64,000 nucleotides of DNA, from assembly GCF_024223415.1 (NCBI RefSeq), contig NZ_CP100500.1; one strand, 5' to 3'. Shown here in pieces: positions 1 through 61,385 of this stretch; position 1 is the stretch's first letter, and every line of letters starts with the position of its first letter. This DNA comes from Escherichia coli. GTDB taxonomy: Bacteria; Pseudomonadota; Gammaproteobacteria; Enterobacterales; Enterobacteriaceae. The position numbers were made by a program, and so were the translations under genes. The notes under the pieces are model-generated. The model worked only from the letters and a program-made list of their open reading frames with translations. It was not told the origin of the DNA and did no database searches.

Positions 1-363
<363 letters not shown>

Positions 364-459
364 GTTATGTGTTCTTTAAAAATAAGGAAATGTTTGAATT
401 TAGTTGGTAGATTGTTGATGTGGAATAAATTTGTTTAAAAACAGATATGTATGCTTAGT
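364..459 (+). promoter_or_regulatory. CRISPR leader (AT-rich, expected to hold the array promoter and integration-host-factor site)
   Basis: 96 bp AT-rich segment between cas2 stop and first repeat; position matches the E. coli type I-E leader. Promoter elements not pinpointed. Confidence 0.7.
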
Positions 460-1342
460 GTGTTCCCCGCGCCAGCGGGGATAAACCGGTCAAATCGGTT
501 ACCTTAACCTGTTGAATGTGGTGTTCCCCGCGCCAGCGGGGATAAACCGAACGGCTACGGCACCGAGGTGACAAACCAGATGTGTTCCCCGCGCCAGCGG
601 GGATAAACCGAACTCCAGGATATTGCAAACCGCATAGTGGATGTGTTCCCCGCGCCAGCGGGGATAAACCGCCGTTGCGCTGGCATCGGGTGTACCTGTT
701 GTGGTGTTCCCCGCGCCAGCGGGGATAAACCGCCGTTGCGCTGGCATCGGGTGTACCTGTTGTGGTGTTCCCCGCGCCAGCGGGGATAAACCGGGCTTAC
801 ACGCCACCATGGCATCAAGAACGATGTGTTCCCCGCGCCAGCGGGGATAAACCGATTACGACTTCCGCACGCACCCACCGTTTGTAGTGTTCCCCGCGCC
901 AGCGGGGATAAACCGTTGGGCTAGGAGGAAGAGCATCATTAACATGGGTGTTCCCCGCGCCAGCGGGGATAAACCTGAGGCGGCTAAACCGTCGCGCACA
1001 CGAGCGACGTGTTCCCCGCGCCAGCGGGGATAAACCGCGTACTGCTTACTCCGTCATCGATGTATGAGTGTGTTCCCCGCGCCAGCGGGGATAAACCGTA
1101 CGTGTCGCCGTTACAGATTTCAGTCTGTTAGTGTTCCCCGCGCCAGCGGGGATAAACCGGGCGTCCAGTGATGCTTTCTGGTGCTCGAATAGTGTTCCCC
1201 GCGCCAGCGGGGATAAACCGCACGATTTTATGTGCCGCGTTGAGGCGTGGGCGTGTTCCCCGCGCCAGCGGGGATAAACCGGGCGCACTGGATGCGATGA
1301 TGGATATCACTTAGAATTCCCCGCCCCTGCGGTAGAACACCC
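460..1342 (+). CRISPR. Type I-E CRISPR array: 14 canonical 29-bp repeats GTGTTCCCCGCGCCAGCGGGGATAAACCG, one degenerate terminal repeat, 14 spacers of 32 bp (13 unique)
   Basis: Repeats start at 460, 521, 582, 643, 704, 765, 826, 887, 948, 1009, 1070, 1131, 1192, 1253 with exact 61-bp period. Terminal degenerate repeat 1314-1342 (GAATTCCCCGCCCCTGCGGTAGAACACCC, about 19/29 identity). Repeat 9 ends in T (976) instead of G. Spacers 672-703 and 733-764 are identical. Confidence 0.98.
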
Positions 1343-1362
1343 AGCTCCCATTTTCCAACCCA

Positions 1363-2400
1363 TCAAGACGCCTTCGCCAGCTCCTTCACCAACGGTAGCA
1401 TTATCCGCATAACATCACGGCAGCGACGTTCTATTCTTCCAGGAAGTGCCTTATCAATATGCTGTTGATTATCCAGTCTTACGTCATGCCAGCTATTTCC
1501 CGCAGGGAATGCGGCTGTTTTTGCGCGTTGCTGATAACCATCCTTATTCCCAAGATTCCAGTTAGTCGCTTCCACCGAAAGTACAGCAATGCCCGCTTTG
1601 TCGAATATTTCTGCGTCATTACAACACCCAGTGCCTTTCGGATAATTTTTATTCAAACCCGGATTGGTCGTTGCGGCTATTCCGTGACTGCGCGCAATTG
1701 CCAGCGCCCTGTCGCGCGTTAATTTCCTTACTGCCTCAGGGGTTTTTACACCGCTGTTGAAATACAATTTATCGCCAACAATTAAGTTATCGAGATTAAT
1801 CACCAGCAGCGTATTTTTCTTTTCGGTGTCACTCATCCGCTTGAGTAAATTCTCAGCGCCTAATTTCCCTTCCTCTTCGCCGCTGGTCGCCACAAATCGA
1901 ATACCATACTCGGTAGGCGTATTTTTCAGGCGTTCTGCCAGTTCCAGCATGACACCTAAACCTGCGGCGTTATCATCCATTCCTTGTAACGTCAGCCCGC
2001 CGAGATTGGCATCGGCGTCAGCATCGCTCAGCGGGGCGTAAGTATCCAGATGCGCCATAATGATGATCTGCTGCGGCGCTTTGCCTTCATGAGCGGCAAT
2101 CACCGTACTTCCCGTCACGTTATGCCAGCTCTTACGATTATCGCGGGCGGTATAAATATACCGACTATTAAATGTCCGAATATCACTGCGATAACCCATT
2201 TGCTGAAACTGTTGGCGAATATAATCGGCAGATAACATTTCTGCAGGAGTTCCGGTCATGCGTCCCGGAAAGAAAGTAGCAATATGTCGTGCCTGAGTAT
2301 TAGCAAAATCGCCAGGTTTAGGTGACGAGGCGTGTACGGGGAGAATAAAGCATACGCCGAGCGCCAGGGCAGCGGTACGGTGGCGCAATGCGGAAAACAT
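1363..2400 (-). CDS. iap: Alkaline phosphatase isozyme conversion aminopeptidase
   Basis: 345 aa ORF, signal-peptide-like N-terminus, matches E. coli Iap; conserved position next to the CRISPR array. Confidence 0.92.
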   Translation of the reverse strand: MFSALRHRTAALALGVCFILPVHASSPKPGDFANTQARHIATFFPGRMTGTPAEMLSADYIRQQFQQMGYRSDIRTFNSRYIYTARDNRKSWHNVTGSTVIAAHEGKAPQQIIIMAHLDTYAPLSDADADANLGGLTLQGMDDNAAGLGVMLELAERLKNTPTEYGIRFVATSGEEEGKLGAENLLKRMSDTEKKNTLLVINLDNLIVGDKLYFNSGVKTPEAVRKLTRDRALAIARSHGIAATTNPGLNKNYPKGTGCCNDAEIFDKAGIAVLSVEATNWNLGNKDGYQQRAKTAAFPAGNSWHDVRLDNQQHIDKALPGRIERRCRDVMRIMLPLVKELAKAS

Positions 2401-2651
2401 AGTGAGTCCTTAAATACCATGCAAATTTTTTTACCGCCATAGTATGAAACTGCCGCTGCGCTAAAACAATTTCAAATCTTCCTAAACGCCCGAAATCCGG
2501 TGCCTTAAGCACTTTTTGATATTAGCTTTGCCAAATCGTTATTCCGTTAAGGAACTACTCATTCTAATTGGTAATTTCATTCGTTCTCTTACGCTCCCTA
2601 TAGTCGAAACATCTGATGGCAAGAAAATAGCGGTATTGCAAAGGAACGGTT

Positions 2652-3560
2652 ATGGATCAAAAACGACTTACCCACCTACGACAGCTGGAGGCGGAAAGCA
2701 TCCACATCATTCGCGAGGTGGCGGCAGAATTCTCAAATCCGGTGATGCTCTACTCTATCGGTAAAGATTCCAGCGTCATGCTGCATCTGGCGCGCAAGGC
2801 GTTTTATCCAGGTACGCTGCCTTTCCCGTTGCTGCATGTCGATACCGGCTGGAAATTCCGCGAGATGTATGAGTTCCGCGATCGTACGGCGAAAGCCTAC
2901 GGCTGCGAGCTGCTGGTGCATAAAAACCCGGAAGGCGTGGCGATGGGGATTAATCCATTCGTGCACGGCAGCGCGAAACATACCGATATTATGAAGACCG
3001 AAGGCCTGAAGCAGGCGCTGAATAAATACGGTTTTGATGCCGCCTTCGGTGGTGCGCGCCGCGACGAAGAGAAATCCCGTGCTAAAGAGCGAATCTATTC
3101 TTTCCGTGATCGCTTCCATCGCTGGGATCCGAAAAATCAGCGCCCGGAGCTGTGGCACAACTACAACGGGCAAATTAATAAAGGCGAAAGCATCCGCGTC
3201 TTCCCGCTCTCTAACTGGACCGAGCAGGATATCTGGCAATACATCTGGCTGGAAAATATCGACATTGTGCCGCTGTATCTCGCTGCGGAACGTCCGGTTC
3301 TGGAACGCGACGGTATGTTGATGATGATTGATGACAACCGTATCGACCTGCAACAGGGCGAAGTGATTAAAAAACGGATGGTGCGTTTCCGTACGCTGGG
3401 CTGCTGGCCGCTGACCGGTGCGGTGGAGTCAAATGCACAAACACTGCCGGAGATCATCGAAGAGATGCTGGTTTCCACCACCAGTGAACGTCAGGGCCGC
3501 GTGATTGACCGCGACCAGGCGGGATCCATGGAGCTGAAAAAACGTCAGGGGTATTTTTAA
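2652..3560 (+). CDS. cysD: Sulfate adenylyltransferase subunit 2
   Basis: 302 aa; PAPS reductase-like fold motifs; cysD-cysN-cysC operon order. Confidence 0.95.
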
Positions 3561-3561
3561 G

Positions 3562-4989
3562 ATGAACACCGCACTTGCACAACAAATCGCCAATGAAGGC
3601 GGCGTCGAAGCCTGGATGATTGCGCAACAACATAAAAGCCTGCTGCGTTTTCTGACCTGTGGTAGCGTCGATGACGGCAAAAGTACCCTGATTGGTCGTC
3701 TGCTGCACGATACCCGCCAAATCTATGAAGATCAGCTCTCATCGCTGCATAACGACAGTAAGCGTCACGGCACCCAGGGCGAAAAGCTGGATCTGGCTCT
3801 GCTGGTGGACGGCCTGCAAGCTGAGCGTGAACAGGGCATCACCATTGACGTGGCCTACCGCTATTTCTCTACCGAGAAGCGTAAATTTATTATCGCCGAC
3901 ACTCCAGGGCACGAGCAGTACACCCGCAATATGGCGACTGGCGCATCGACATGTGAACTGGCGATCTTACTGATCGATGCCCGTAAAGGCGTGTTCGATC
4001 AAACCCGTCGTCACAGTTTTATCTCCACACTGTTGGGGATCAAACATCTGGTCGTGGCGATCAACAAAATGGATCTGGTGGATTACAGTGAAGAGACGTT
4101 CACCCGTATTCGTGAAGATTATTTGACCTTTGCCGGGCAGCTGCCGGGTAATCTGGATATCCGCTTTGTGCCGCTCTCTGCACTGGAAGGCGACAACGTG
4201 GCTTCGCAAAGTGAAAGTATGCCGTGGTACAGCGGTCCGACACTGCTCGAAGTGCTGGAAACCGTGGAGATTCAGCGAGTGGTGGATGCCCAGCCAATGC
4301 GCTTCCCGGTGCAGTACGTTAACCGCCCAAATCTCGATTTTCGTGGCTACGCCGGAACGCTGGCATCCGGTCGCGTGGAAGTCGGGCAACGTGTAAAAGT
4401 GCTGCCCTCTGGTGTGGAATCAAACGTCGCGCGGATCGTGACTTTTGATGGTGATCGCGAAGAAGCCTTTGCCGGAGAAGCGATCACCCTGGTGCTGACG
4501 GATGAGATCGACATCAGCCGTGGCGATCTGCTGCTGGCGGCAGACGAAGCGTTACCAGCTGTGCAGAGCGCGTCGGTGGATGTGGTATGGATGGCGGAAC
4601 AGCCGCTTTCCCCGGGCCAGAGTTATGACATCAAAATTGCCGGTAAGAAGACGCGTGCTCGTGTTGATGGCATTCGTTATCAGGTTGATATTAATAACCT
4701 TACCCAACGCGAAGTTGAAAACCTGCCGCTGAACGGCATCGGCCTGGTGGATCTCACTTTTGACGAGCCACTGGTGTTAGATCGTTATCAGCAAAACCCG
4801 GTTACCGGTGGGCTGATTTTTATCGATCGCCTGAGCAATGTGACCGTAGGTGCCGGTATGGTGCATGAGCCAGTTAGCCAGGCAACTGCTGCGCCATCTG
4901 AATTTAGTGCATTCGAACTGGAATTGAATGCCCTGGTTCGCCGCCACTTTCCACACTGGGGCGCGCGCGATTTGCTGGGGGATAAATAA
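3562..4989 (+). CDS. cysN: Sulfate adenylyltransferase subunit 1 (GTPase)
   Basis: 475 aa; GTP-binding motifs GSVDDGKST and DTPGH; starts 2 bp after cysD stop. Confidence 0.95.
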
Positions 4990-5594
4990 TGGCGCTGCAT
5001 GACGAAAACGTCGTCTGGCATAGCCATCCGGTCACTGTGCAACAACGCGAGCTACACCACGGTCATCGTGGTGTAGTGCTGTGGTTTACCGGCCTCTCCG
5101 GGTCCGGTAAATCAACGGTCGCCGGGGCGCTGGAGGAGGCGTTACATAAACTCGGCGTCAGTACGTATCTGCTGGATGGCGACAATGTTCGCCACGGATT
5201 ATGTAGCGATCTCGGTTTTAGCGATGCCGATCGTAAAGAGAATATCCGTCGCGTCGGTGAAGTGGCGAATTTGATGGTTGAGGCCGGACTGGTGGTGCTG
5301 ACCGCATTTATCTCGCCACACCGCGCCGAACGCCAGATGGTTCGTGAACGCGTAGGAGAAGGGCGCTTTATCGAAGTGTTTGTCGATACGCCGCTGGCGA
5401 TTTGCGAAGCCCGCGATCCAAAAGGCTTATATAAGAAAGCGCGTGCCGGTGAACTGGGCAACTTTACGGGAATAGATTCCGTTTACGAAGCGCCTGAATC
5501 GGCAGAAATTCATCTCAATGGTGAACAATTAGTAACAAATTTGGTACAGCAATTATTAGATCTGTTGAGACAGAACGATATTATCAGATCCTGA
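4989..5594 (+). CDS. cysC: Adenylylsulfate (APS) kinase
   Basis: 201 aa; P-loop GLSGSGKST; start overlaps cysN stop. Confidence 0.95.
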
Positions 5595-5643
5595 GACACC
5601 ACCGGGTTTCCATGCCCGGTTCGTCAAAGTAACAGGATCAAAT

Positions 5644-5967
5644 ATGCGTAATAGCCATAACATTACACTAACAAATAACGACAGCCTTACTGAGGATGAA
5701 GAAACCACATGGTCACTGCCTGGTGCCGTGGTCGGTTTTATCTCCTGGTTATTTGCGCTGGCGATGCCGATGTTGATTTATGGCTCTAACACGCTGTTCT
5801 TCTTTATCTACACCTGGCCTTTCTTTCTGGCGCTGATGCCCGTTGCGGTAGTGGTGGGGATTGCGCTGCATTCATTGATGGACGGAAAGCTACGCTACAG
5901 TATTGTTTTCACCCTGGTGACAGTAGGCATTATGTTTGGCGCACTGTTTATGTGGCTGCTGGGCTAA
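5644..5967 (+). CDS. ygbE: Small inner-membrane protein YgbE (DUF3561)
   Basis: 107 aa hydrophobic protein; same length and synteny as K-12 YgbE. Confidence 0.85.
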   Translation: MRNSHNITLTNNDSLTEDEETTWSLPGAVVGFISWLFALAMPMLIYGSNTLFFFIYTWPFFLALMPVAVVVGIALHSLMDGKLRYSIVFTLVTVGIMFGALFMWLLG

Positions 5968-6160
5968 TTTGTACTTTCCCGTCTCCTCTGTTCATAATTC
6001 AAACCGTAACTAATAATGAGATTATGTTCTGCACGCCCTGGGTATACGTAACAATGGACAAATGTGGTACATTTGCCCGCGTTGTCGCGGTATCCCCAAC
6101 AGAGGATGTAGAGTCGTCTTCGGATGCATGGGATGATGATGCCGTTTTTCAGGGGGCAGG

Positions 6161-6472
6161 ATGGGTAAACTAACGCTGCTGTTGCTGGCTATTCTGGTCT
6201 GGCTACAGTATTCGCTGTGGTTCGGTAAGAACGGTATACATGACTATACCCGCGTCAATGATGATGTGGCGGCACAGCAAGCTACAAACGCGAAACTTAA
6301 AGCGCGAAACGATCAACTTTTTGCCGAAATTGACGATCTCAATGGCGGCCAGGAGGCGCTCGAAGAGCGTGCGCGTAATGAACTCAGCATGACCAGGCCG
6401 GGCGAAACTTTTTATCGTCTGGTGCCTGACGCGTCGAAGCGCGCACAGTCTGCGGGGCAAAACAATCGATAA
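6161..6472 (+). CDS. ftsB: Cell division protein FtsB
   Basis: 103 aa; N-terminal transmembrane segment then coiled coil; upstream of ispD as in K-12. Confidence 0.93.
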
Positions 6473-6490
6473 ATCAGCCCGGGAATTAAC

Positions 6491-7201
6491 ATGGCAACCA
6501 CTCATTTGGATGTTTGCGCCGTGGTTCCGGCGGCCGGATTTGGCCGTCGAATGCAAACGGAATGTCCTAAGCAATATCTCTCAATCGGTAATCAAACCAT
6601 TCTTGAACACTCGGTGCATGCGCTGCTGGCACATCCCCGGGTGACACGTGTCGTCATTGCCATAAGTCCTGGCGATAGCCGTTTTGCACAACTTCCTCTG
6701 GCGAATCATCCGCAAATCACCGTTGTAGATGGCGGTGATGAGCGTGCCGATTCCGTGCTGGCAGGTCTGAAAGCCGCTGGCGACGCGCAGTGGGTATTGG
6801 TGCATGACGCCGCTCGTCCTTGTCTGCATCAGGATGACCTCGCGCGATTGTTGGCGTTGAGCGAAACCAGCCGCACGGGAGGGATCCTCGCCGCACCAGT
6901 GCGCGATACTATGAAACGTGCCGAACCGGGCAAAAATGCCATTGCTCATACCGTTGATCGCAACGGCTTATGGCACGCGCTGACGCCGCAATTTTTCCCT
7001 CGAGAGCTGTTACATGACTGTCTGACGCGCGCTCTAAATGAAGGCGCGACTATTACCGACGAAGCCTCGGCGCTGGAATATTGCGGATTTCATCCGCAGT
7101 TGGTCGAAGGCCGCGCGGATAACATTAAAGTCACGCGCCCGGAAGATTTGGCACTGGCCGAGTTTTACCTCACCCGAACCATCCATCAGGAGAATACATA
7201 A
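6491..7201 (+). CDS. ispD: 2-C-methyl-D-erythritol 4-phosphate cytidylyltransferase
   Basis: 236 aa; [10 protein letters not shown] motif; overlaps ispF start. Confidence 0.95.
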
Positions 7202-7680
7202 TGCGAATTGGACACGGTTTTGACGTACACGCCTTTGGCGGTGAAGGCCCAATTATCATTGGTGGCGTACGCATTCCTTACGAAAAAGGATTGCTGGCGC
7301 ATTCTGATGGCGACGTGGCGCTCCATGCGTTGACCGATGCATTGCTTGGCGCGGCGGCGCTGGGGGATATCGGCAAGCTGTTCCCGGATACCGATCCGGC
7401 ATTTAAAGGTGCCGACAGCCGCGAGCTGCTACGCGAAGCCTGGCGTCGTATTCAGGCGAAGGGTTATACCCTTGGTAACGTCGATGTCACTATCATCGCT
7501 CAGGCACCGAAGATGTTGCCGCACATTCCACAAATGCGCGTGTTTATTGCCGAAGATCTCGGCTGCCATATGGATGATGTTAACGTGAAAGCCACTACTA
7601 CGGAAAAACTTGGATTTACCGGACGTGGGGAAGGGATTGCCTGTGAAGCGGTGGCGCTACTCATTAAGGCAACAAAATGA
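7201..7680 (+). CDS. ispF: 2-C-methyl-D-erythritol 2,4-cyclodiphosphate synthase
   Basis: 159 aa; [12 protein letters not shown] signature. Confidence 0.95.
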
Positions 7681-8706
7681 TTGAGTTTGATAATCTCACT
7701 TACCTCCACGGTAAACCGCAAGGCACCGGGCTGCTGAAAGCCAATCCGGAAGACTTTGTGGTGGTGGAAGATTTGGGCTTTGAGCCTGATGGTGAAGGTG
7801 AGCATATTCTGGTTAGAATCCTCAAAAACGGCTGCAATACCCGTTTTGTGGCGGATGCACTGGCGAAATTCCTGAAAATTCATGCCCGTGAAGTCAGCTT
7901 CGCTGGGCAAAAAGATAAACATGCTGTTACGGAACAGTGGTTATGCGCTCGCGTGCCGGGCAAAGAGATGCCCGATCTGAGTGCCTTTCAACTGGAAGGC
8001 TGCCAGGTGCTGGAGTATGCGCGGCACAAGCGCAAGCTGCGTTTAGGGGCGCTGAAAGGTAACGCCTTTACCCTGGTACTACGCGAAGTGAGCAATCGCG
8101 ATGACGTTGAACAACGTCTGATCGATATTTGCGTAAAAGGTGTACCGAACTACTTCGGTGCCCAACGTTTTGGGATTGGCGGTAGCAACTTGCAGGGCGC
8201 GCTGCGCTGGGCGCAAACCAATACTCCGGTGCGCGATCGCAATAAACGGAGTTTTTGGTTGTCGGCAGCCCGCAGTGCGTTGTTTAATCAGATTGTTGCT
8301 GAGCGCCTCAAAAAAGCAGACGTTAATCAAGTTGTTGACGGCGATGCGCTACAATTAGCCGGACGTGGTAGCTGGTTTGTAGCAACCACCGAAGAACTGG
8401 CGGAATTACAGCGTCGCGTCAACGATAAAGAGCTGATGATAACCGCCGCATTGCCGGGCAGTGGCGAATGGGGAACTCAGCGTGAAGCGCTGGCATTCGA
8501 ACAAGCAGCTGTCGCCGCAGAAACTGAATTACAAGCCTTACTGGTGCGCGAAAAAGTTGAAGCCGCGCGCAGAGCGATGCTGCTGTATCCGCAACAATTA
8601 AGCTGGAACTGGTGGGACGACGTCACTGTCGAAATCCGTTTCTGGCTTCCGGCAGGAAGCTTTGCGACCAGCGTTGTCAGGGAACTTATCAACACAACAG
8701 GTGATT

Positions 8707-8726
<20 letters not shown>
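7677..8726 (+). CDS. truD: tRNA pseudouridine(13) synthase
   Basis: 349 aa; matches TruD; overlaps ispF stop. Confidence 0.93.
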
Positions 8727-10088
<1,362 letters not shown>

Positions 10089-10227: not shown

Positions 10228-11367
10228 ATGAGCGCGGGAAGCCCAAAATTCACCGTTCGCCGCATTGCGGCTTTGTCACTGGTTTCGCTATGGCTGGCAG
10301 GCTGTTCTGACACTTCAAATCCACCGGCACCGGTCAGCTCCGTTAATGGCAATGCGCCTGCAAATACCAATTCTGGTATGTTGATTACGCCGCCGCCGAA
10401 AATGGGGACGACGTCTACAGCGCAGCAACCGCAAATTCAGCCGGTACAGCAGCCACAAATTCAGGCCACTCAACAACCGCAAATCCAGCCAGTGCAGCCA
10501 GTAGCTCAGCAGCCGGTACAGATGGAAAACGGACGCATCGTCTATAACCGTCAGTATGGGAACATTCCGAAAGGCAGTTATAGCGGCAGTACCTATACCG
10601 TGAAAAAAGGCGACACGCTTTTCTATATCGCCTGGATTACTGGCAACGATTTCCGTGACCTTGCTCAGCGCAACAATATTCAGGCACCATACGCGCTGAA
10701 CGTCGGTCAGACCTTACAGGTGGGGAATGCTTCCGGTACGCCAATCACTGGCGGAAATGCCATTACCCAGGCCGACGCAGCAGAGCAAGGAGTTGTGATC
10801 AAGCCTGCACAAAATTCCACCGTTGCTGTTGCGTCGCAACCGACAATTACGTATTCTGAGTCTTCGGGTGAACAGAGTGCTAACAAAATGTTGCCGAACA
10901 ACAAGCCAACTGCGACCACGGTCACAGCGCCTGTAACGGTACCAACAGCAAGCACAACCGAGCCGACTGTCAGCAGTACATCAACCAGTACGCCTATCTC
11001 CACCTGGCGCTGGCCGACTGAGGGCAAAGTGATCGAAACCTTTGGCGCTTCTGAGGGGGGCAACAAGGGGATTGATATCGCAGGCAGCAAAGGACAGGCA
11101 ATTATCGCGACCGCAGATGGCCGCGTTGTTTATGCCGGTAACGCGCTGCGCGGCTACGGTAATCTGATTATCATCAAACATAATGATGATTACCTGAGTG
11201 CCTACGCCCATAACGACACAATGCTGGTCCGGGAACAACAAGAAGTGAAGGCGGGGCAAAAAATAGCAACCATGGGTAGCACCGGAACCAGTTCAACACG
11301 CTTGCATTTTGAAATTCGTTACAAGGGGAAATCCGTAAACCCGCTGCGTTATTTGCCGCAGCGATAA
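10228..11367 (+). CDS. nlpD: Murein hydrolase activator lipoprotein NlpD (LysM + M23 peptidase domain)
   Basis: 379 aa; lipobox LAGCS; Gln/Pro-rich linker; LysM and LytM domains; directly upstream of rpoS. Confidence 0.95.
10423..10518 (+). repeat. Imperfect 24-bp tandem repeats (about 4 copies) encoding the Gln/Pro-rich linker of NlpD
   Basis: Units cagcaaccgcaaattcagccggta / cagcagccacaaattcaggccact / caacaaccgcaaatccagccagtg / cagccagtagctcagcagccggta, giving QQPQIQPV-like peptide repeats. Confidence 0.7.
10829..10857 (+). promoter_or_regulatory. Putative major rpoS promoter inside nlpD (-35 TTGCGT, 17-bp spacer, -10 TATTCT)
   Basis: Hexamers sit about 570 bp upstream of the rpoS ATG, consistent with the known long rpoS 5' leader; exact boxes are my assignment from sequence. 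Confidence 0.5.
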
Positions 11368-11429
11368 ATCGGCGGAACCAGGCTTTTGCTTGAATGTTCC
11401 GTCAAGGGATCACGGGTAGGAGCCACCTT

Positions 11430-12422
11430 ATGAGTCAGAATACGCTGAAAGTTCATGATTTAAATGAAGATGCGGAATTTGATGAGAACGGAGTTGAGGT
11501 TTTTGACGAAAAGGCCTTAGTAGAAGAGGAACCCAGTGATAACGATTTGGCCGAAGAGGAACTGTTATCGCAGGGAGCCACACAGCGTGTGTTGGACGCG
11601 ACTCAGCTTTACCTTGGTGAGATTGGTTATTCACCACTGTTAACGGCCGAAGAAGAAGTTTATTTTGCGCGTCGCGCACTGCGTGGAGATGTCGCCTCTC
11701 GCCGCCGGATGATCGAGAGTAACTTGCGTCTGGTGGTAAAAATTGCCCGCCGTTATGGCAATCGTGGTCTGGCGTTGCTGGACCTTATCGAAGAGGGCAA
11801 CCTGGGGCTGATCCGCGCGGTAGAGAAGTTTGACCCGGAACGTGGTTTCCGCTTCTCAACATACGCAACCTGGTGGATTCGCCAGACGATTGAACGGGCG
11901 ATTATGAACCAAACCCGTACTATTCGTTTGCCGATTCACATCGTAAAGGAGCTGAACGTTTACCTGCGAACCGCACGTGAGTTGTCCCATAAGCTGGACC
12001 ATGAACCAAGTGCGGAAGAGATCGCAGAGCAACTGGATAAGCCAGTTGATGACGTCAGCCGTATGCTTCGTCTTAACGAGCGCATTACCTCGGTAGACAC
12101 CCCGCTGGGTGGTGATTCCGAAAAAGCGTTGCTGGACATCCTGGCCGATGAAAAAGAGAACGGTCCGGAAGATACCACGCAAGATGACGATATGAAGCAG
12201 AGCATCGTCAAATGGCTGTTCGAGCTGAACGCCAAACAGCGTGAAGTACTGGCACGTCGATTCGGTTTGCTGGGGTACGAAGCGGCAACACTGGAAGATG
12301 TAGGTCGTGAAATTGGCCTCACCCGTGAACGTGTTCGCCAGATTCAGGTTGAAGGCCTGCGCCGTTTGCGCGAAATCCTGCAAACGCAGGGGCTGAATAT
12401 CGAAGCGCTGTTCCGCGAATAA
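11430..12422 (+). CDS. rpoS: RNA polymerase sigma factor RpoS (sigma-S/sigma-38)
   Basis: Known N-terminus [14 protein letters not shown] starts at ATG 11430 (330 aa); ORF-track frame extends to an upstream ATG at 11394. Codon 33 is GAG (Glu). Confidence 0.97.
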
Positions 12423-12541: not shown

Positions 12542-12949
12542 CTATGTGTTCATCATCTTGCGCACCAGCTGCACAAACAGCTCCTGCTCTTCTGCACTCA
12601 AACGCCCCAAAAATTCCTCATCCACGCTGTCACCAATCGGTATCGCCGCAGCAAGTATCTTTTCTCCTTCGGCAGTCAGCCAGACAAAGCGACGCCGCTT
12701 GTCAGCGGCATCATGTTCACGTCTGACTAAGCCACGATTCTCCATTCTTGCCAACATTTCTGCCAACGTTGCTTTGGTGCTGACTGCTGCTTCTATCAGT
12801 GCCACCTGTTCGATACCAGGCTTATCAGCAATGGCGCGCATCACCGCATACTGTGGTTTGGTCAGGTCAGGTAACTCGTGCTGCCAGCGAGCCGTGTGCT
12901 GCTGAAAAAGCTGTCGTAACTGATGGAACGCTTTATTTCGTAACGCCAT
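12542..12949 (-). CDS. MarR/SlyA-family transcriptional regulator
   Basis: ORF-track frame 12542-12982; Met at 12949 has a GGAG Shine-Dalgarno 7 nt upstream, giving about 135 aa. Winged-helix MarR-like sequence. Divergent from the decarboxylase operon. Confidence 0.8.
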   Translation of the reverse strand: MALRNKAFHQLRQLFQQHTARWQHELPDLTKPQYAVMRAIADKPGIEQVALIEAAVSTKATLAEMLARMENRGLVRREHDAADKRRRFVWLTAEGEKILAAAIPIGDSVDEEFLGRLSAEEQELFVQLVRKMMNT

Positions 12950-13064
12950 GTAAACTCCGGGCAAACTATCTGCCGCTATCATAGCGGTTTTTCAGTGACG
13001 AAGGGGATGTTGTTACTTTTCAGTGCTTGCCGCAATGAGAACAGAGGCGTATTTTAATAATAAT

Positions 13065-13078
13065 GTTCGTATACGAAC
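13065..13078. promoter_or_regulatory. Perfect 14-bp palindrome GTTCGTATACGAAC, candidate MarR-family operator
   Basis: Exact inverted repeat in the 113-bp divergent intergenic region, 18 bp upstream of the ecdB ATG. Confidence 0.5.
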
Positions 13079-13095
13079 AATTAAGAGAGTAAGCA

Positions 13096-13689
13096 ATGAA
13101 ACTGATCGTCGGGATGACAGGGGCTACCGGTGCGCCTCTTGGTGTGGCATTACTGCAAGCGCTGCGGGAGATGCCGAATGTCGAGACTCATCTGGTGATG
13201 TCGAAGTGGGCGAAAACCACCATTGAACTGGAAACGCCTTACAGCGCCCGCGATGTTGCTGCCCTCGCTGACTTCAGCCATAACCCGGCGGATCAGGCGG
13301 CGACCATCTCCTCAGGTTCCTTTCGTACCGACGGCATGATCGTTATTCCGTGCAGTATGAAAACGCTCGCCGGTATCCGCGCTGGTTACGCTGATGGCCT
13401 GGTAGGGCGCGCGGCGGACGTCGTGCTCAAAGAAGGCCGCAAACTGGTGCTGGTGCCGCGTGAAATGCCGCTTAGCACCATCCATCTCGAAAATATGCTC
13501 GCACTTTCACGCATGGGCGTGGCGATGGTGCCGCCGATGCCTGCCTTTTATAACCATCCCGAAACGGTAGATGACATTGTCCACCACGTGGTAGCCCGCG
13601 TGCTGGATCAATTTGGCCTTGAACATCCCTACGCCAGGCGCTGGCAAGGATTGCCGCAGGCCCGGAATTTTTCTCAGGAGAATGAATAA
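13096..13689 (+). CDS. ecdB: UbiX-like flavin prenyltransferase (Pad1 family), decarboxylase subunit B
   Basis: 197 aa; MKLIVGMTGATGA flavoprotein signature; TAATG overlap with the next gene. Confidence 0.85.
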   Translation: MKLIVGMTGATGAPLGVALLQALREMPNVETHLVMSKWAKTTIELETPYSARDVAALADFSHNPADQAATISSGSFRTDGMIVIPCSMKTLAGIRAGYADGLVGRAADVVLKEGRKLVLVPREMPLSTIHLENMLALSRMGVAMVPPMPAFYNHPETVDDIVHHVVARVLDQFGLEHPYARRWQGLPQARNFSQENE

Positions 13690-15116
13690 TGGCATTTGAT
13701 GATTTACGCAGCTTTTTACAGGCGCTTGATGACCACGGCCAGTTACTGAAAATCAGCGAAGAGGTGAACGCGGAACCGGATCTGGCTGCCGCTGCCAACG
13801 CCACCGGGCGTATCGGCGATGGTGCACCGGCGCTGTGGTTTGATAATATTCGCGGTTTTACCGATGCCCGCGTGGCGATGAATACCATCGGTTCCTGGCA
13901 GAACCACGCGATTTCCTTGGGCCTGCCGCCAAACACCCCGGTTAAAAAACAGATTGATGAGTTTATCCGCCGCTGGGATAACTTCCCGATCGCCCCGGAG
14001 CGCCGCGCCAATCCAGCCTGGGCGCAGAACACCGTCGATGGTGACGAGATTAATCTGTTCGATATCCTGCCGCTGTTTCGTTTAAACGACGGTGATGGCG
14101 GTTTCTATCTCGACAAAGCGTGCGTGGTTTCCCGCGATCCGCTCGACCCGGATAACTTCGGCAAGCAGAACGTCGGCATCTACCGCATGGAAGTGAAGGG
14201 CAAGCGTAAGCTCGGCCTGCAACCGGTGCCGATGCACGATATCGCCCTGCATCTGCATAAAGCAGAAGAGCGCGGTGAAGATCTACCGATTGCGATCACG
14301 CTCGGTAACGATCCGATCATCACGCTGATGGGCGCAACGCCACTGAAATACGATCAATCTGAGTACGAAATGGCAGGCGCGCTGCGTGAAAGCTCGTACC
14401 CGATCGCCACCGCCCCGCTGACCGGTTTTGATGTGCCGTGGGGTTCAGAAGTGATCCTCGAAGGGGTCATCGAAAGCCGTAAACGCGAAATCGAAGGGCC
14501 GTTCGGTGAGTTTACCGGACACTACTCCGGCGGGCGTAACATGACCGTGGTGCGCATCGATAAAGTCTCTTACCGCACCAGGCCGATTTTCGAATCGCTG
14601 TACCTCGGCATGCCGTGGACCGAAATCGACTACCTGATGGGGCCAGCCACCTGTGTGCCGCTGTATCAGCAACTGAAAGCCGAGTTCCCGGAAGTGCAGG
14701 CGGTAAACGCCATGTACACCCACGGCCTGCTGGCGATTATCTCCACCAAAAAACGCTACGGCGGCTTTGCCCGCGCGGTGGGCCTGCGTGCGATGACCAC
14801 GCCGCACGGTCTGGGCTACGTAAAGATGGTGATTATGGTCGATGAAGACGTTGACCCGTTCAACCTGCCGCAGGTGATGTGGGCGCTCTCCTCGAAAGTA
14901 AATCCGGCAGGGGATTTGGTGCAGTTGCCGAATATGTCCGTGCTGGAACTCGACCCTGGCTCAAGCCCGGCGGGGATCACCGACAAGCTGATTATCGACG
15001 CCACCACGCCTGTCGCCCCGGACAACTGTGGTCACTACAGCCAGCCGGTGGTGGATTTGCCGGAAACCAAAGCCTGGGCTGAAAAACTGACCGCTATGCT
15101 GGCTGCACGTAAATAA
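13689..15116 (+). CDS. ecdC: UbiD-family (prFMN-dependent) aromatic acid decarboxylase, subunit C
   Basis: 475 aa; UbiD-like; operonic with the UbiX-like gene. Confidence 0.85.
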   Translation: MAFDDLRSFLQALDDHGQLLKISEEVNAEPDLAAAANATGRIGDGAPALWFDNIRGFTDARVAMNTIGSWQNHAISLGLPPNTPVKKQIDEFIRRWDNFPIAPERRANPAWAQNTVDGDEINLFDILPLFRLNDGDGGFYLDKACVVSRDPLDPDNFGKQNVGIYRMEVKGKRKLGLQPVPMHDIALHLHKAEERGEDLPIAITLGNDPIITLMGATPLKYDQSEYEMAGALRESSYPIATAPLTGFDVPWGSEVILEGVIESRKREIEGPFGEFTGHYSGGRNMTVVRIDKVSYRTRPIFESLYLGMPWTEIDYLMGPATCVPLYQQLKAEFPEVQAVNAMYTHGLLAIISTKKRYGGFARAVGLRAMTTPHGLGYVKMVIMVDEDVDPFNLPQVMWALSSKVNPAGDLVQLPNMSVLELDPGSSPAGITDKLIIDATTPVAPDNCGHYSQPVVDLPETKAWAEKLTAMLAARK

Positions 15117-15126
15117 GGAGAACAAG

Positions 15127-15363
15127 ATGATTTGTCCACGTTGTGCCGATGAACAGATTGAAGTGATGGCGAAATCGCCGGTGAAAGATGTCTGGACGGT
15201 ATATCAGTGCCAGCATTGCCTTTATACCTGGCGCGATACCGAACCGCTGCGCCGTACCAGCCGCGAACATTACCCTGAAGCGTTCCGCATGACGCAGAAA
15301 GATATTGATGACGCGCCAATGGTGCCGAGCATCCCGCCGCTGCTGGCGGCAGATAAGCGCTAA
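15127..15363 (+). CDS. ecdD: Small decarboxylase subunit D (Cys-rich, zinc-ribbon-like)
   Basis: 78 aa with CPRC...CQHC motifs; 10 bp after ecdC stop. Confidence 0.75.
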   Translation: MICPRCADEQIEVMAKSPVKDVWTVYQCQHCLYTWRDTEPLRRTSREHYPEAFRMTQKDIDDAPMVPSIPPLLAADKR

Positions 15364-15403
15364 TAAAAAGTGCCGGGTAGTGGCTTTGCTTTACCCGGCC
15401 TCA

Positions 15404-16060
15404 TTACTTTATTTTATAAAATGACAGCCGCCCGCTTTTCGGCGATCCGGTATCAATATAAATCTGGTTAGCGAACGTCTGAATGTTATCAAACATCATA
15501 TGTCCAAATATAAAATAATCAGCGCCGTTTATTTGTTGTAACTCGCCATTAAGCGATTTCTGCACACGATCAACAGGCCAGAGTAATTCGCTCTCCGCTA
15601 TTTCTTTACCAAAGAGATATTCACTCCCCGGATAATCTGCATGTGCGATGACATATTTTATATTGTCGTTAGTGATTTCAATAATATGTGGAAGGTGATG
15701 GAATTTCAGCAACAGATCTGTAGCTTCTTTTTGCTCTGAATCATTTAAATCGAAAAACCAGTCACCACCGCTGGCAAGCCACATATTTCCATCGCCAGTT
15801 TCGAATGCATCAAGCGCCATCGCTTCGTGGTTGCCTTTAACGGAGATAAACCAGGGCTGGTTTAGCAGGCGCAGGACGTTAAGACTCTCCGGCCCACGAT
15901 CAATATTATCGCCGACAGAAATAAGTAAGTCGGTTTCGGGGAAAAAAGAGAGTTGATGTAAGCGGGATTGTAATAACTGATATTCACCATGAATATCACC
16001 AACGACCCATATATGGCGATAGTGATGGGCATTGATTTTTTGATAGCGTGTAGATGGCAT
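15404..16060 (-). CDS. pphB: Serine/threonine protein phosphatase 2
   Basis: 218 aa; metallophosphatase motifs GDIHG and GDNIDRG; next to mutS. Confidence 0.9.
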   Translation of the reverse strand: MPSTRYQKINAHHYRHIWVVGDIHGEYQLLQSRLHQLSFFPETDLLISVGDNIDRGPESLNVLRLLNQPWFISVKGNHEAMALDAFETGDGNMWLASGGDWFFDLNDSEQKEATDLLLKFHHLPHIIEITNDNIKYVIAHADYPGSEYLFGKEIAESELLWPVDRVQKSLNGELQQINGADYFIFGHMMFDNIQTFANQIYIDTGSPKSGRLSFYKIK

Positions 16061-19869: not shown

Positions 19870-21948
19870 TTAAATCAATGCCGATTTATCAATTCCCAGT
19901 CGCTTCATCCGTGACAGCAGGGTCGTGCGTTTCAGCCCCAGACGTTGCGCAGCGCCTTTAGGCCCGGCAACCACGCCGTTAGTTTCTTTCAGCACGCGAA
20001 CAATCAACTGATATTCATCTTCGCCCTCCTGAGCGACAACCGTTGCGGCAGGCGGCGTTTCAGGCTCCGGTAAAGCAATATCTGGCAATGACAGCTGCAG
20101 CACGTTGCCGCGTGTTAGCAATACCGCGCGCTCAATGACGTTTTCCAGTTCGCGTACGTTACCCGGCCACTCCATATTGCTCAAGGTGCGCAACGTCTCG
20201 GCAGGAATGCTGTCGATATTGCGCCCCAGACGACGGGCAATTTTGAAGGTAAAGGCTTTCGCCAGCAGCGGAATATCTTCCGGACGCTCGCGTAGTGGCG
20301 GAAGGTGAATCGGGAATACGTTCAGGCGGTAATAGAGATCGCTACGGAACTCACGGTCGGCGACCATTTTTTTCAGATCGCGGTTAGTCGCGGCGATTAG
20401 ACGCACGTCCGTCTGAATGATTTTGTTGCTGCCGAGGCGTTCAAACTCCTGTTCCTGCAATACACGCAGCAACTTCGGCTGTAACTCCAGTGGCATATCG
20501 CCCACTTCGTCGAGGAACAGGGAGCTTTTATCCGCCAGTTCAAAACGACCAATGCGCTGGGCGCTGGCACCAGTAAAAGCCCCACGTTCATGACCAAACA
20601 GATCGCTCTCCAGCAATCCGGCAGGCATCGCCGCGCAGTTCATTTTGACCATGCGGCGATTATTACGCCCACTGAGATTATGGATAGCACGGGCAATCAG
20701 CTCTTTACCCGTGCCAGTTTCACCGAGGATCAGCACGGTACTGTCACTTTGCGCCACCATTTCAACTTGTTTAAGCACGCTGTACATGGCTTCGCTGCGG
20801 CCAATAATCTCGCCAAATTCACTATCAACATTGTTGAGCTGCTCGGTCAGGGCGAGGTTTTCATCAACCAGCCGTTCTTTCAGACGATGGATTTCCTGAT
20901 AGGCGAGGGCGTTATCGACAGCGATTGCCACACGTTCGGCAATCTGGCGCAGTAAATTCAGATTGGTAGTGGTAAACACTTTCTCTTCACATTGCGCCAG
21001 TTTCAGCACGCCCAGCATGGTGTCGCCAGACATCAGCGGTAACAGGCACAAGGTTTGAATCTGGTTGCCCCAGGTGTCGAACAACATGCGTTCGTAGGGG
21101 GCTAAATTATCTCGTTCGTGGAGATTGATCAGCAGCATCTCTTTACTTTTGAACACGCGTTCGGTGAGGGTTCCGGCTTCATCGACTTCGCTCTGTTCGT
21201 GGGCGGGATGTTGTTTATCAAGATAGTGAGTGGAGTAGATGTTGAGTTTGTTTTTACGGTGGCTGCGTAAGACAATGCTGATATCGTCAATGTCGAAATA
21301 GTAATGGATTTCTTTGGCGACTTCGCTGACCAGTTCGTCCATATCCAGGCGGGAAAGCACCGCGTTGGTGATGGCGACCAGGATGCGGAAGTTATCGCGT
21401 TCCCGGCATAACAACTCATAGTCGACATTGTTAACGACGCGACTCTGGATTTGTTCGGTGACGACAGAAACGATCTGCGTAAATGTTTGCAGACGATTGA
21501 ACTCTTTTTCGCTCCAGGGGCGATCGTCATAACGAATAAATTCACAGCCACCAAAAATATGCCCTTCCGCCGCCAGTGGCATCAGGCAATAGTGACCAAA
21601 TTTGGGGTATAGCCCACCTGCGGCCAGCTGCGGCCAGGTTTCACAAAATTCTTCGTAACTGCAATGCAGCGTATCAGGGCGCGACAAAATGCTGCGTACC
21701 GGACCGTGTGCCAGAACAGTTTCGTCTTCATATTTAATGGGGGTGTCTTTTTCACGCGATGCGTAATAAGACGCACGTTGAGTCTGCGCTTGCCACAACA
21801 CAATAGCCGCGTTGTCGGCGAGCGCAGAACGCTTTACCAGTTGCGAAAGAGCCTCACACAGCGAGGCCAGATCGGGCTGCTGCAATAGTGTCCGAGTGAT
21901 GTCGAACAACCCTTGCTGTCCGAGATCACTCATCGGTGTATATGACAT
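19870..21948 (-). CDS. fhlA: Formate hydrogenlyase transcriptional activator FhlA (sigma54-dependent)
   Basis: Known N-terminus MSYTPMSDLGQQ gives 692 aa; ORF-track frame extends to an upstream ATG at 21984. AAA+ GETGTGKE and GAFTGA motifs. Confidence 0.96.
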   Translation of the reverse strand: MSYTPMSDLGQQGLFDITRTLLQQPDLASLCEALSQLVKRSALADNAAIVLWQAQTQRASYYASREKDTPIKYEDETVLAHGPVRSILSRPDTLHCSYEEFCETWPQLAAGGLYPKFGHYCLMPLAAEGHIFGGCEFIRYDDRPWSEKEFNRLQTFTQIVSVVTEQIQSRVVNNVDYELLCRERDNFRILVAITNAVLSRLDMDELVSEVAKEIHYYFDIDDISIVLRSHRKNKLNIYSTHYLDKQHPAHEQSEVDEAGTLTERVFKSKEMLLINLHERDNLAPYERMLFDTWGNQIQTLCLLPLMSGDTMLGVLKLAQCEEKVFTTTNLNLLRQIAERVAIAVDNALAYQEIHRLKERLVDENLALTEQLNNVDSEFGEIIGRSEAMYSVLKQVEMVAQSDSTVLILGETGTGKELIARAIHNLSGRNNRRMVKMNCAAMPAGLLESDLFGHERGAFTGASAQRIGRFELADKSSLFLDEVGDMPLELQPKLLRVLQEQEFERLGSNKIIQTDVRLIAATNRDLKKMVADREFRSDLYYRLNVFPIHLPPLRERPEDIPLLAKAFTFKIARRLGRNIDSIPAETLRTLSNMEWPGNVRELENVIERAVLLTRGNVLQLSLPDIALPEPETPPAATVVAQEGEDEYQLIVRVLKETNGVVAGPKGAAQRLGLKRTTLLSRMKRLGIDKSALI

Positions 21949-22021
21949 TTTGTTCTTCCAGGAAAGCACCGCAAAGCGGTGCAAAAGGTCATTGACTAAC
22001 TATAGGAGATTTAGAATTTTA

Positions 22022-57815: not shown

Positions 57816-57908
57816 GGTGAGGTGGCCGAGAGGCTGAAGGCGCTCCCCTGCTAAGGGAGTATGCGGTCAAAAGCTGCATCCGGGGTTCGAATCCCCGCCT
57901 CACCGCCA
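57816..57908 (+). tRNA. serV: tRNA-Ser (anticodon GCT)
   Basis: 93 nt GGTGAGGTGGCCGAG...CACCGCCA with long variable arm and anticodon loop cuGCUaa. Confidence 0.95.
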
Positions 57909-57911
57909 TTT

Positions 57912-57988
57912 GCATCCGTAGCTCAGCTGGATAGAGTACTCGGCTACGAACCGAGCGGTCGGAGGTTCGAATCCTCCCGGATGCACCA
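57912..57988 (+). tRNA. argV: tRNA-Arg (anticodon ACG), copy 1
   Basis: 77 nt GCATCCGTAGCTCAGCTGGATAGAGTACTCGGCTACGAACCGAGCGGTCGGAGGTTCGAATCCTCCCGGATGCACCA; 3 bp after serV. Confidence 0.95.
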
Positions 57989-58123
57989 TATTCTCCGTAA
58001 CCTTCAGCGATGAAGGTATGGAAGAGGTGGCGGTACTAACCGCAGGCACCAGGGAGGATAACGTTGCTTTAGCAACGGCCCGAAGGGCGAGCCGCAAGGC
58101 GAGTAATCCTCCCGGATGCACCA
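57989..58123 (+). repeat. tRNA-array spacer module X (copy A), ending in an 18-nt tRNA-Arg 3'-end fragment (58106-58123)
   Basis: Has hairpins ACCTTC-agcgat-GAAGGT and CGTTGC-ttta-GCAACG, then ATCCTCCCGGATGCACCA identical to the tRNA-Arg 3' end. Confidence 0.7.
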
Positions 58124-58187
58124 TCTCTTACTTGATACAGCTTTAGTAGCGGTATCAAAAAATCTGCAGTAAAGTAAGTTTCCCGAT

Positions 58188-58264
58188 GCATCCGTAGCTC
58201 AGCTGGATAGAGTACTCGGCTACGAACCGAGCGGTCGGAGGTTCGAATCCTCCCGGATGCACCA
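58188..58264 (+). tRNA. argY: tRNA-Arg (anticodon ACG), copy 2
   Basis: Identical 77-nt sequence; 199-bp spacer after copy 1. Confidence 0.95.
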
Positions 58265-58326
58265 TCTCTTACTTGATATGGCTTTAGTAGCGATATCAAT
58301 ATCAGCAGTAAAATAAATTTCCCAAT

Positions 58327-58403
58327 GCATCCGTAGCTCAGCTGGATAGAGTACTCGGCTACGAACCGAGCGGTCGGAGGTTCGAATCCTCCCGGATGCA
58401 CCA
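58327..58403 (+). tRNA. argZ: tRNA-Arg (anticodon ACG), copy 3
   Basis: Identical 77-nt sequence; 62-bp spacer after copy 2. Symbol assigned by order only; could correspond to argQ. Confidence 0.9.
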
Positions 58404-61312: not shown

Positions 61313-61385
61313 AAAAAGGCCACTCGTGAGTGGCCAAAATTTCATCTCTGAATTCAGGGATGATGATAACAAATGCGCGTCTTTC
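61313..61385 (-). ncRNA. micA: MicA (SraD) small regulatory RNA
   Basis: Minus-strand GAAAGACGCGCATTTGTTATCATCATCCCTGAATTCAGAGATGAAATTTTGGCCACTCACGAGTGGCCTTTTT matches MicA from memory, including its terminator hairpin; conserved gshA-luxS location, divergent from luxS. Confidence 0.92.

Follow-up and report, generated by a model that had tools for sequence, protein, structure and literature searches.

Does the rpoS gene of this Escherichia coli strain carry the codon 33 of laboratory K-12 or that of natural isolates, does it encode a complete sigma-S, and how far does the answer help to place the strain? We addressed these questions in a stretch of 64,000 nucleotides, here called the window, by reading and translating the gene, comparing it with complete genomes of the species and following the neighbouring sequence. 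The rpoS gene in the window is almost certainly the ordinary ancestral-type 33E allele of natural, non-K-12 E. coli, encoding a complete sigma-S, and none of the results speaks against this reading.

The rpoS gene and its upstream region

The reading of the locus starts from three features, given with their coordinates in the window.

11430..12422, + strand: rpoS (sigma-S / sigma-38) coding sequence, 330 codons and a TAA stop, intact (translation)
11526..11528, + strand: rpoS codon 33, GAG (Glu), the natural-isolate 33E allele (direct reading)
10800..11429, + strand: 3' part of nlpD and the nlpD-rpoS spacer, K-12-like (compared with MG1655)

Read directly from the window, rpoS begins with an ATG at 11430, its stop codon ends at 12422, and its length is 993 nt. 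Codon 33 stands in the context GTA GAA GAG GAA CCC (V31 E32 E33 E34 P35); this GAG in an uninterrupted reading frame is what defines the 33E allele, and the K-12 variant codons TAG, CAG and TAT are absent from rpoS codon 33 in the window, GAG being read instead. The earlier note had identified the gene as rpoS, read GAG (Glu) at 11526-11528 and proposed a full-length RpoS of 330 residues, all of which the reading and the translation bear out. A frameshift elsewhere in rpoS, which would have undone that proposal, was looked for in the translation of 11430-12422, and the frame contains neither a frameshift nor an internal stop.

The encoded protein shows the four sigma-70 regions in order, all above the Pfam gathering cut-off: region 1.2 (PF00140, residues 56-88), region 2 (PF04542, 94-163), region 3 (PF04539, 174-248) and region 4 (PF04545, 262-315). 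Since the first of these starts at residue 56, residue 33 lies N-terminal to all conserved sigma regions, in the acidic and poorly conserved N-terminal tail upstream of region 1.2. Domain order from Pfam and orthology, judged from nucleotide identity and synteny, both identify the protein as RpoS, a member of the group 2 sigma-70 family. The gene order pcm (9462-10088), nlpD (10228-11367), rpoS matches that of strains KV7 and MG1655, with the position of rpoS 3' of nlpD conserved. Over its 993 nt the gene has 100% nucleotide identity to the annotated rpoS of many RefSeq genomes, and an rpoS match is present in 5,414 of 5,426 complete E. coli genomes (12 are without one). The identical gene of KV7 is annotated as RpoS, WP_000081550.1, a protein that unrelated strains (KE47, O111 RM9322) also have despite synonymous nucleotide differences; the RpoS of the window is the commonest RpoS protein in RefSeq.

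Alignment with rpoS of a reference strain, the check that had been proposed, leaves Q33E as the only protein change relative to K-12 MG1655. Three nucleotides differ between the two genes, at codons 33, 273 and 330, and one of the differences is non-synonymous: position 11526 is G in the window and C in MG1655, giving GAG versus CAG and Glu versus Gln. The other two are synonymous (GTA in the window versus GTG in MG1655 at codon 273; GAA versus GAG at codon 330). Similarly, three differences from MG1655 occur over the 630 nt that precede the ATG, all within the nlpD reading frame, and the ~160 nt closest to the ATG, in which the ribosome-binding region lies, match MG1655 exactly. We take this stretch, 10800-11429, to carry the rpoS 5' mRNA leader and sRNA-pairing region.

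An intact reading frame might still go together with an attenuated RpoS, if changes elsewhere than in the rpoS coding region (rssB, small RNAs, ppGpp or the promoter) reduced it, and codon 33 would then be uninformative on phenotype. Loss of rpoS is readily selected (PMC2700278) and the RpoS level varies greatly between strains, independent of the rpoS sequence (PMC3074542). We nonetheless consider such an attenuation unlikely here, given the near identity to MG1655 of the upstream 630 nt with its spacer and ribosome-binding region, and a protein equal to the commonest natural RpoS; the trans-acting loci lie outside the window. From the sequence we infer instead that this strain makes a working RpoS, as a full-length sigma-S that would be translated normally from its first ATG.

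Codon-33 alleles in the species and in the K-12 pedigree

To count the alleles of codon 33, 45-mers centred on the codon, one per allele, were compared by megablast with the 5,426 complete E. coli genomes. Megablast seeds on an exact 28-mer, and each 28-mer of a 45-mer covers positions 18-28; the matches are therefore allele-specific, because every 28-nt seed covers codon 33. The census (n=5,426) gave the following counts.

GAG: 4,853 genomes (45-mer census)
GAG with GTT at codon 31: 203 genomes (fifth 45-mer)
CAG: 175 genomes (45-mer census)
TAG: 121 genomes (45-mer census)
TAT: 1 genome, a C600 (45-mer census)

The first four 45-mers left over ~264 rpoS-positive genomes, of which divergent ones were sampled; these proved to carry a lineage-specific synonymous change of GTA to GTT at codon 31, with GAG kept at codon 33. 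The 203 GAG genomes recovered by the fifth 45-mer had been missed initially because the GTT of codon 31 blocks seeding. Together, 4,853 + 203 genomes give a GAG total of 5,056 of 5,426 (93%), in a census that is not exhaustive, as ~61 rpoS-positive genomes fall outside all five 45-mers through other nearby SNPs, indels or disruptions. Since the collection is non-random, and both clonal pathogens and laboratory derivatives of K-12 are numerous in it, these figures are descriptive and not population estimates.

Among the matches listed, the CAG genomes are overwhelmingly MG1655, BW25113, MC4100, DHB4, DH-type, HST04, EPI300 and similar laboratory strains, and the TAG genomes include W3110, C600/EC600, J53, NCM3722, RP437, ER3413 and WG1. 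Several listed non-GAG genomes bear source labels such as 'Homo sapiens' or 'chicken'; their names (C600, J53-p133), their 4.6-Mb, K-12-sized chromosomes and the serotype O16:H48 suggest that they are K-12 conjugation recipients. The literature gives the same picture. One study found GAG to be common in natural isolates outside K-12 and present in every VTEC strain it tested, with CAG in MG1655 (PMC2700278); C97G / Q33E occurs in nearly all sequenced ECOR strains, where it was termed 'commonly observed' (PMC3074542); and all pathogenic and probiotic isolates examined in a further study carry GAG (PMC1852560). Taken together, the census, the listed non-GAG matches and these three studies establish GAG as the majority allele outside K-12.

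In this context the base at 11526 can be judged. If the G were a sequencing or assembly error, the true allele would be CAG or TAG. Such an error is very unlikely: more than 5,000 independent assemblies show the same base (it is the one found in the 5,056 complete genomes), and the full 993-nt gene is identical to that of many of them; moreover, the surrounding 24 kb equals KV7 save for one indel ~8 kb away, and CAG and TAG are, among the matches listed, overwhelmingly K-12 alleles, whereas the flanking gene content here is non-K-12.

Within K-12, codon 33 varies, being amber in some strains and Glu, Tyr or Gln in others (PMC2700278). The amber allele, rpoS396(Am), is partly suppressed by supE44, and both mutations have been traced to Y10, early in the K-12 pedigree (PMC4444293). 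A truncated rpoS is found in WG1 and EMG2, and the 33Q allele of MG1655 is a pseudo-revertant (PMC9997739). These reports and the census together give the history of the codon: GAG, as in natural isolates, was the starting state, an early K-12 stock acquired TAG (rpoS396 amber), and later K-12 stocks pseudo-reverted from TAG to a glutamine codon (CAG, as in MG1655) or a tyrosine codon (TAT); each change along this path is a single-base step. In suppressor-free amber strains, a delta1-53 sigma-S with partial activity is made from a secondary initiation region (PMC2763269). Codon 54 of the window gene is GTG (11589-11591), and it has no role there because no stop lies upstream.

Both alleles are represented among solved sigma-S structures, Gln33 in 6kj6 and Glu33 in the 5ipl family. 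PDB chain 6omf_F, which we take to be a Salmonella-type sigma-S, has Glu33 along with the substitutions V24A and V31S, and its glutamate is consistent with Glu as the ancestral residue.

Two other sequences are disrupted close to the codon. The rpoS of FDAARGOS_1058 (NZ_CP065970.1) contains a 16-bp tandem duplication (AAAAGGCCTTAGTAGA) directly upstream of codon 33, at locus positions ~140-155, and is annotated as frameshifted, and in ECOR70 the 28 nt from 94 to 121 of rpoS are deleted (PMC3074542). Codons 28-41 may thus be a small hotspot for inactivating indels.

The earlier note had described codon 33 as a polymorphic site (Glu, Gln, Tyr or amber), which holds by the census and by published work (PMC2700278, PMC3074542, PMC4444293, PMC9997739). 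The polymorphism is, however, essentially limited to K-12 laboratory lineages, the listed CAG, TAG and TAT matches being overwhelmingly K-12 derivatives. The further suggestion that the codon helps to place the strain stands in part: Glu33 rules out a K-12 33Q, 33am or 33Y stock, but with GAG in ~93% of genomes it has little placing power. Its value is weak because the variation is bound to K-12 and natural isolates have GAG, so that Glu33 places the strain only negatively.

The rpoS-mutS segment and the relatives of the strain

More can be learned from the DNA downstream of rpoS, for which the annotation of KV7 was transferred from identical sequence.

12542..15363, no strand assigned: variable rpoS-mutS segment (annotation transferred from KV7)
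12542-12949, - strand: MarR/SlyA-like regulator (KV7 annotation)
13096-13689: non-oxidative hydroxyarylic acid decarboxylase subunit B (KV7 annotation)
13689-15116: non-oxidative hydroxyarylic acid decarboxylase subunit C (KV7 annotation)
15127-15363: non-oxidative hydroxyarylic acid decarboxylase subunit D (KV7 annotation)

Across 12542-16060 the order is rpoS / MarR / B / C / D / pphB / mutS, with pphB directly after D. Between rpoS and pphB the window contains none of the ygbI-ygbN genes, whereas MG1655 has ygbN-ygbI there. Of the 5,426 complete genomes, 2,379 (~44%) contain the MarR-BCD segment at a coverage of at least 80%, compared with ~93% for GAG, which makes the segment much more useful than codon 33 for marking lineages.

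That the strain is a K-12 derivative with 33E, in which codon 33 would mark a particular K-12 pedigree, is the least likely alternative of all and practically discounted: some K-12 strains do have Glu33 (PMC2700278), but the gene content refutes it (MarR/SlyA-like gene and decarboxylase BCD present, ygbI-ygbN absent, unlike MG1655), two synonymous differences separate the gene from K-12 rpoS, the best matches are the natural animal and human isolates KV7 (phylogroup D, O27; PMC5609401), GPEC1446, SCU-316 and NCTC10444, and the type I-E CRISPR array has spacers in common with KV7.

The 33E allele of the window thus sits in a non-K-12 background, whose nearest relative changes along the sequence. 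From 9000 to 33000 the window is identical to KV7, a pig isolate, apart from one extra base at 19878. Over 1-9000, SCU-316 and NCTC10444 match best (99.1%), and KV7 reaches only 97.8% because its CRISPR array differs. Over 39001-64000, GPEC1446 matches at 100.0% and KV7 is outside the best 10 matches, the lowest of which stands at 98.2%. These differences rule out KV7 as the source of the window, and no complete E. coli genome of the collection matches the whole window. As the best matches differ from part to part, the strain is related to a cluster of KV7, GPEC1446, SCU-316 and NCTC10444, and such whole-region matches place it better than Glu33 does. The change of nearest relative along 1-64000 suggests, at the level of sequence comparison, recombination mosaicism around the mutS-rpoS region, a region that the literature describes as polymorphic and mosaic.

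Several observations were made along the way. The type I-E CRISPR array at 460-1342, downstream of cas1e-cas2e, has 14 full 29-nt repeats at a spacing of 61 nt and a degenerate terminal repeat, and its adjacent spacers 672-703 and 733-764 are identical to each other. It has three cas-proximal and seven iap-proximal spacers in common with KV7; in the internal part, four units are not in KV7 and one KV7 spacer is missing from the window.

The extra base at 19878 lies at the 3' end of fhlA (ORF 19870-21984, - strand), where the window reads TCAATGCC and the KV7 RefSeq record TCATGCC; it is the sole difference over 24 kb. With this base the FhlA of the window ends in ...RLGIDKSALI, presumably the canonical K-12 FhlA C-terminus. 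The FhlA annotated in KV7 has 690 aa, and the base lacking there may reflect either a 1-nt deletion or a mistake of assembly in the KV7 record.

An Rfam scan of the whole window gave no match at rpoS, its only matches being MicA and tRNAs elsewhere. The MicA sRNA (61314-61385, - strand; RF00078, 83.9 bits) adjoins luxS by the transferred KV7 coordinates, with the offset as transferred, and is an ordinary feature. The tRNA cluster at 57816-58403, downstream of csrA, consists of a tRNA-Ser(GCT) and three tandem tRNA-Arg(ACG). Four tRNA-Arg copies are annotated at the same site in KV7, a copy-number variation of the tandem array relative to the three in the window.

Meaning for RpoS phenotypes and comparison with known alleles

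Codon 33 of the window strain is a point of routine annotation, and it recalls that Glu33 is the species norm and the Gln33 of K-12 MG1655 the exception; with MG1655 as the reference, variant calling will flag 'Q33E' in nearly all natural isolates. With a normal full-length sigma-S predicted, stress-resistance, biofilm, acid-tolerance and catalase phenotypes of the window strain would be free of the caveat that applies to W3110, C600, J53 and similar stocks. For typing, codon 33 says 'not K-12' and nothing more, and the adjoining rpoS-mutS cassette is the informative marker.

Whether Glu33 and Gln33 differ quantitatively in their effect, for example on RssB/ClpXP turnover, on how well sigma-S competes for core RNA polymerase or on the promoters it prefers, is a separate matter. 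PMC1852560, citing Atlung et al. 2002, links 33E to more variable RpoS phenotypes, which is a hint. We regard a real effect of this kind as improbable, but if it existed, K-12 33Q data would systematically misestimate RpoS in ~93% of E. coli, the window strain included. The 33E allele itself is already known, is the default of the species and holds no mechanistic surprise, and the Glu33 call in this strain is of routine annotation value only.

Set beside known systems, the window shares its RpoS with the natural 33E allele (WP_000081550.1; for example in O157:H7, O111 and ECOR strains): the protein, the GAG codon, the length of 330 aa and the nlpD-rpoS arrangement are the same, and some lineages differ from it by synonymous changes only, such as GTT at codon 31 in O111 and KE47. 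The MG1655 33Q allele (WP_000081588.1) equals it in 329 of 330 residues, Q33E being the sole protein difference. The rpoS396(Am)/33am allele of early K-12 (W3110, C600, J53, WG1, EMG2) concerns the same gene and codon but has TAG where the window has GAG, and it is expressed either as the full-length protein, through suppression in supE strains, or from an internal start as a delta1-53 sigma-S (PMC2763269, PMC4444293). Downstream, the window has the arrangement described as 'pattern I' by Ewers et al. 2014 (PMC4209514), the O157:H7/EHEC1 type, in which a slyA-like regulator and kpdB/C/D (yclBCD-type) are followed by pphB-mutS. By the definition given there, o454 (ygbN) is absent from the window and kpdC/yclC lies within ~1.3 kb of mutS, an assignment made from sequence and annotation and not by the PCR scheme of that study. 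The window strain thus has the pattern I rpoS-mutS type in common with O157:H7, although it is not itself O157:H7.
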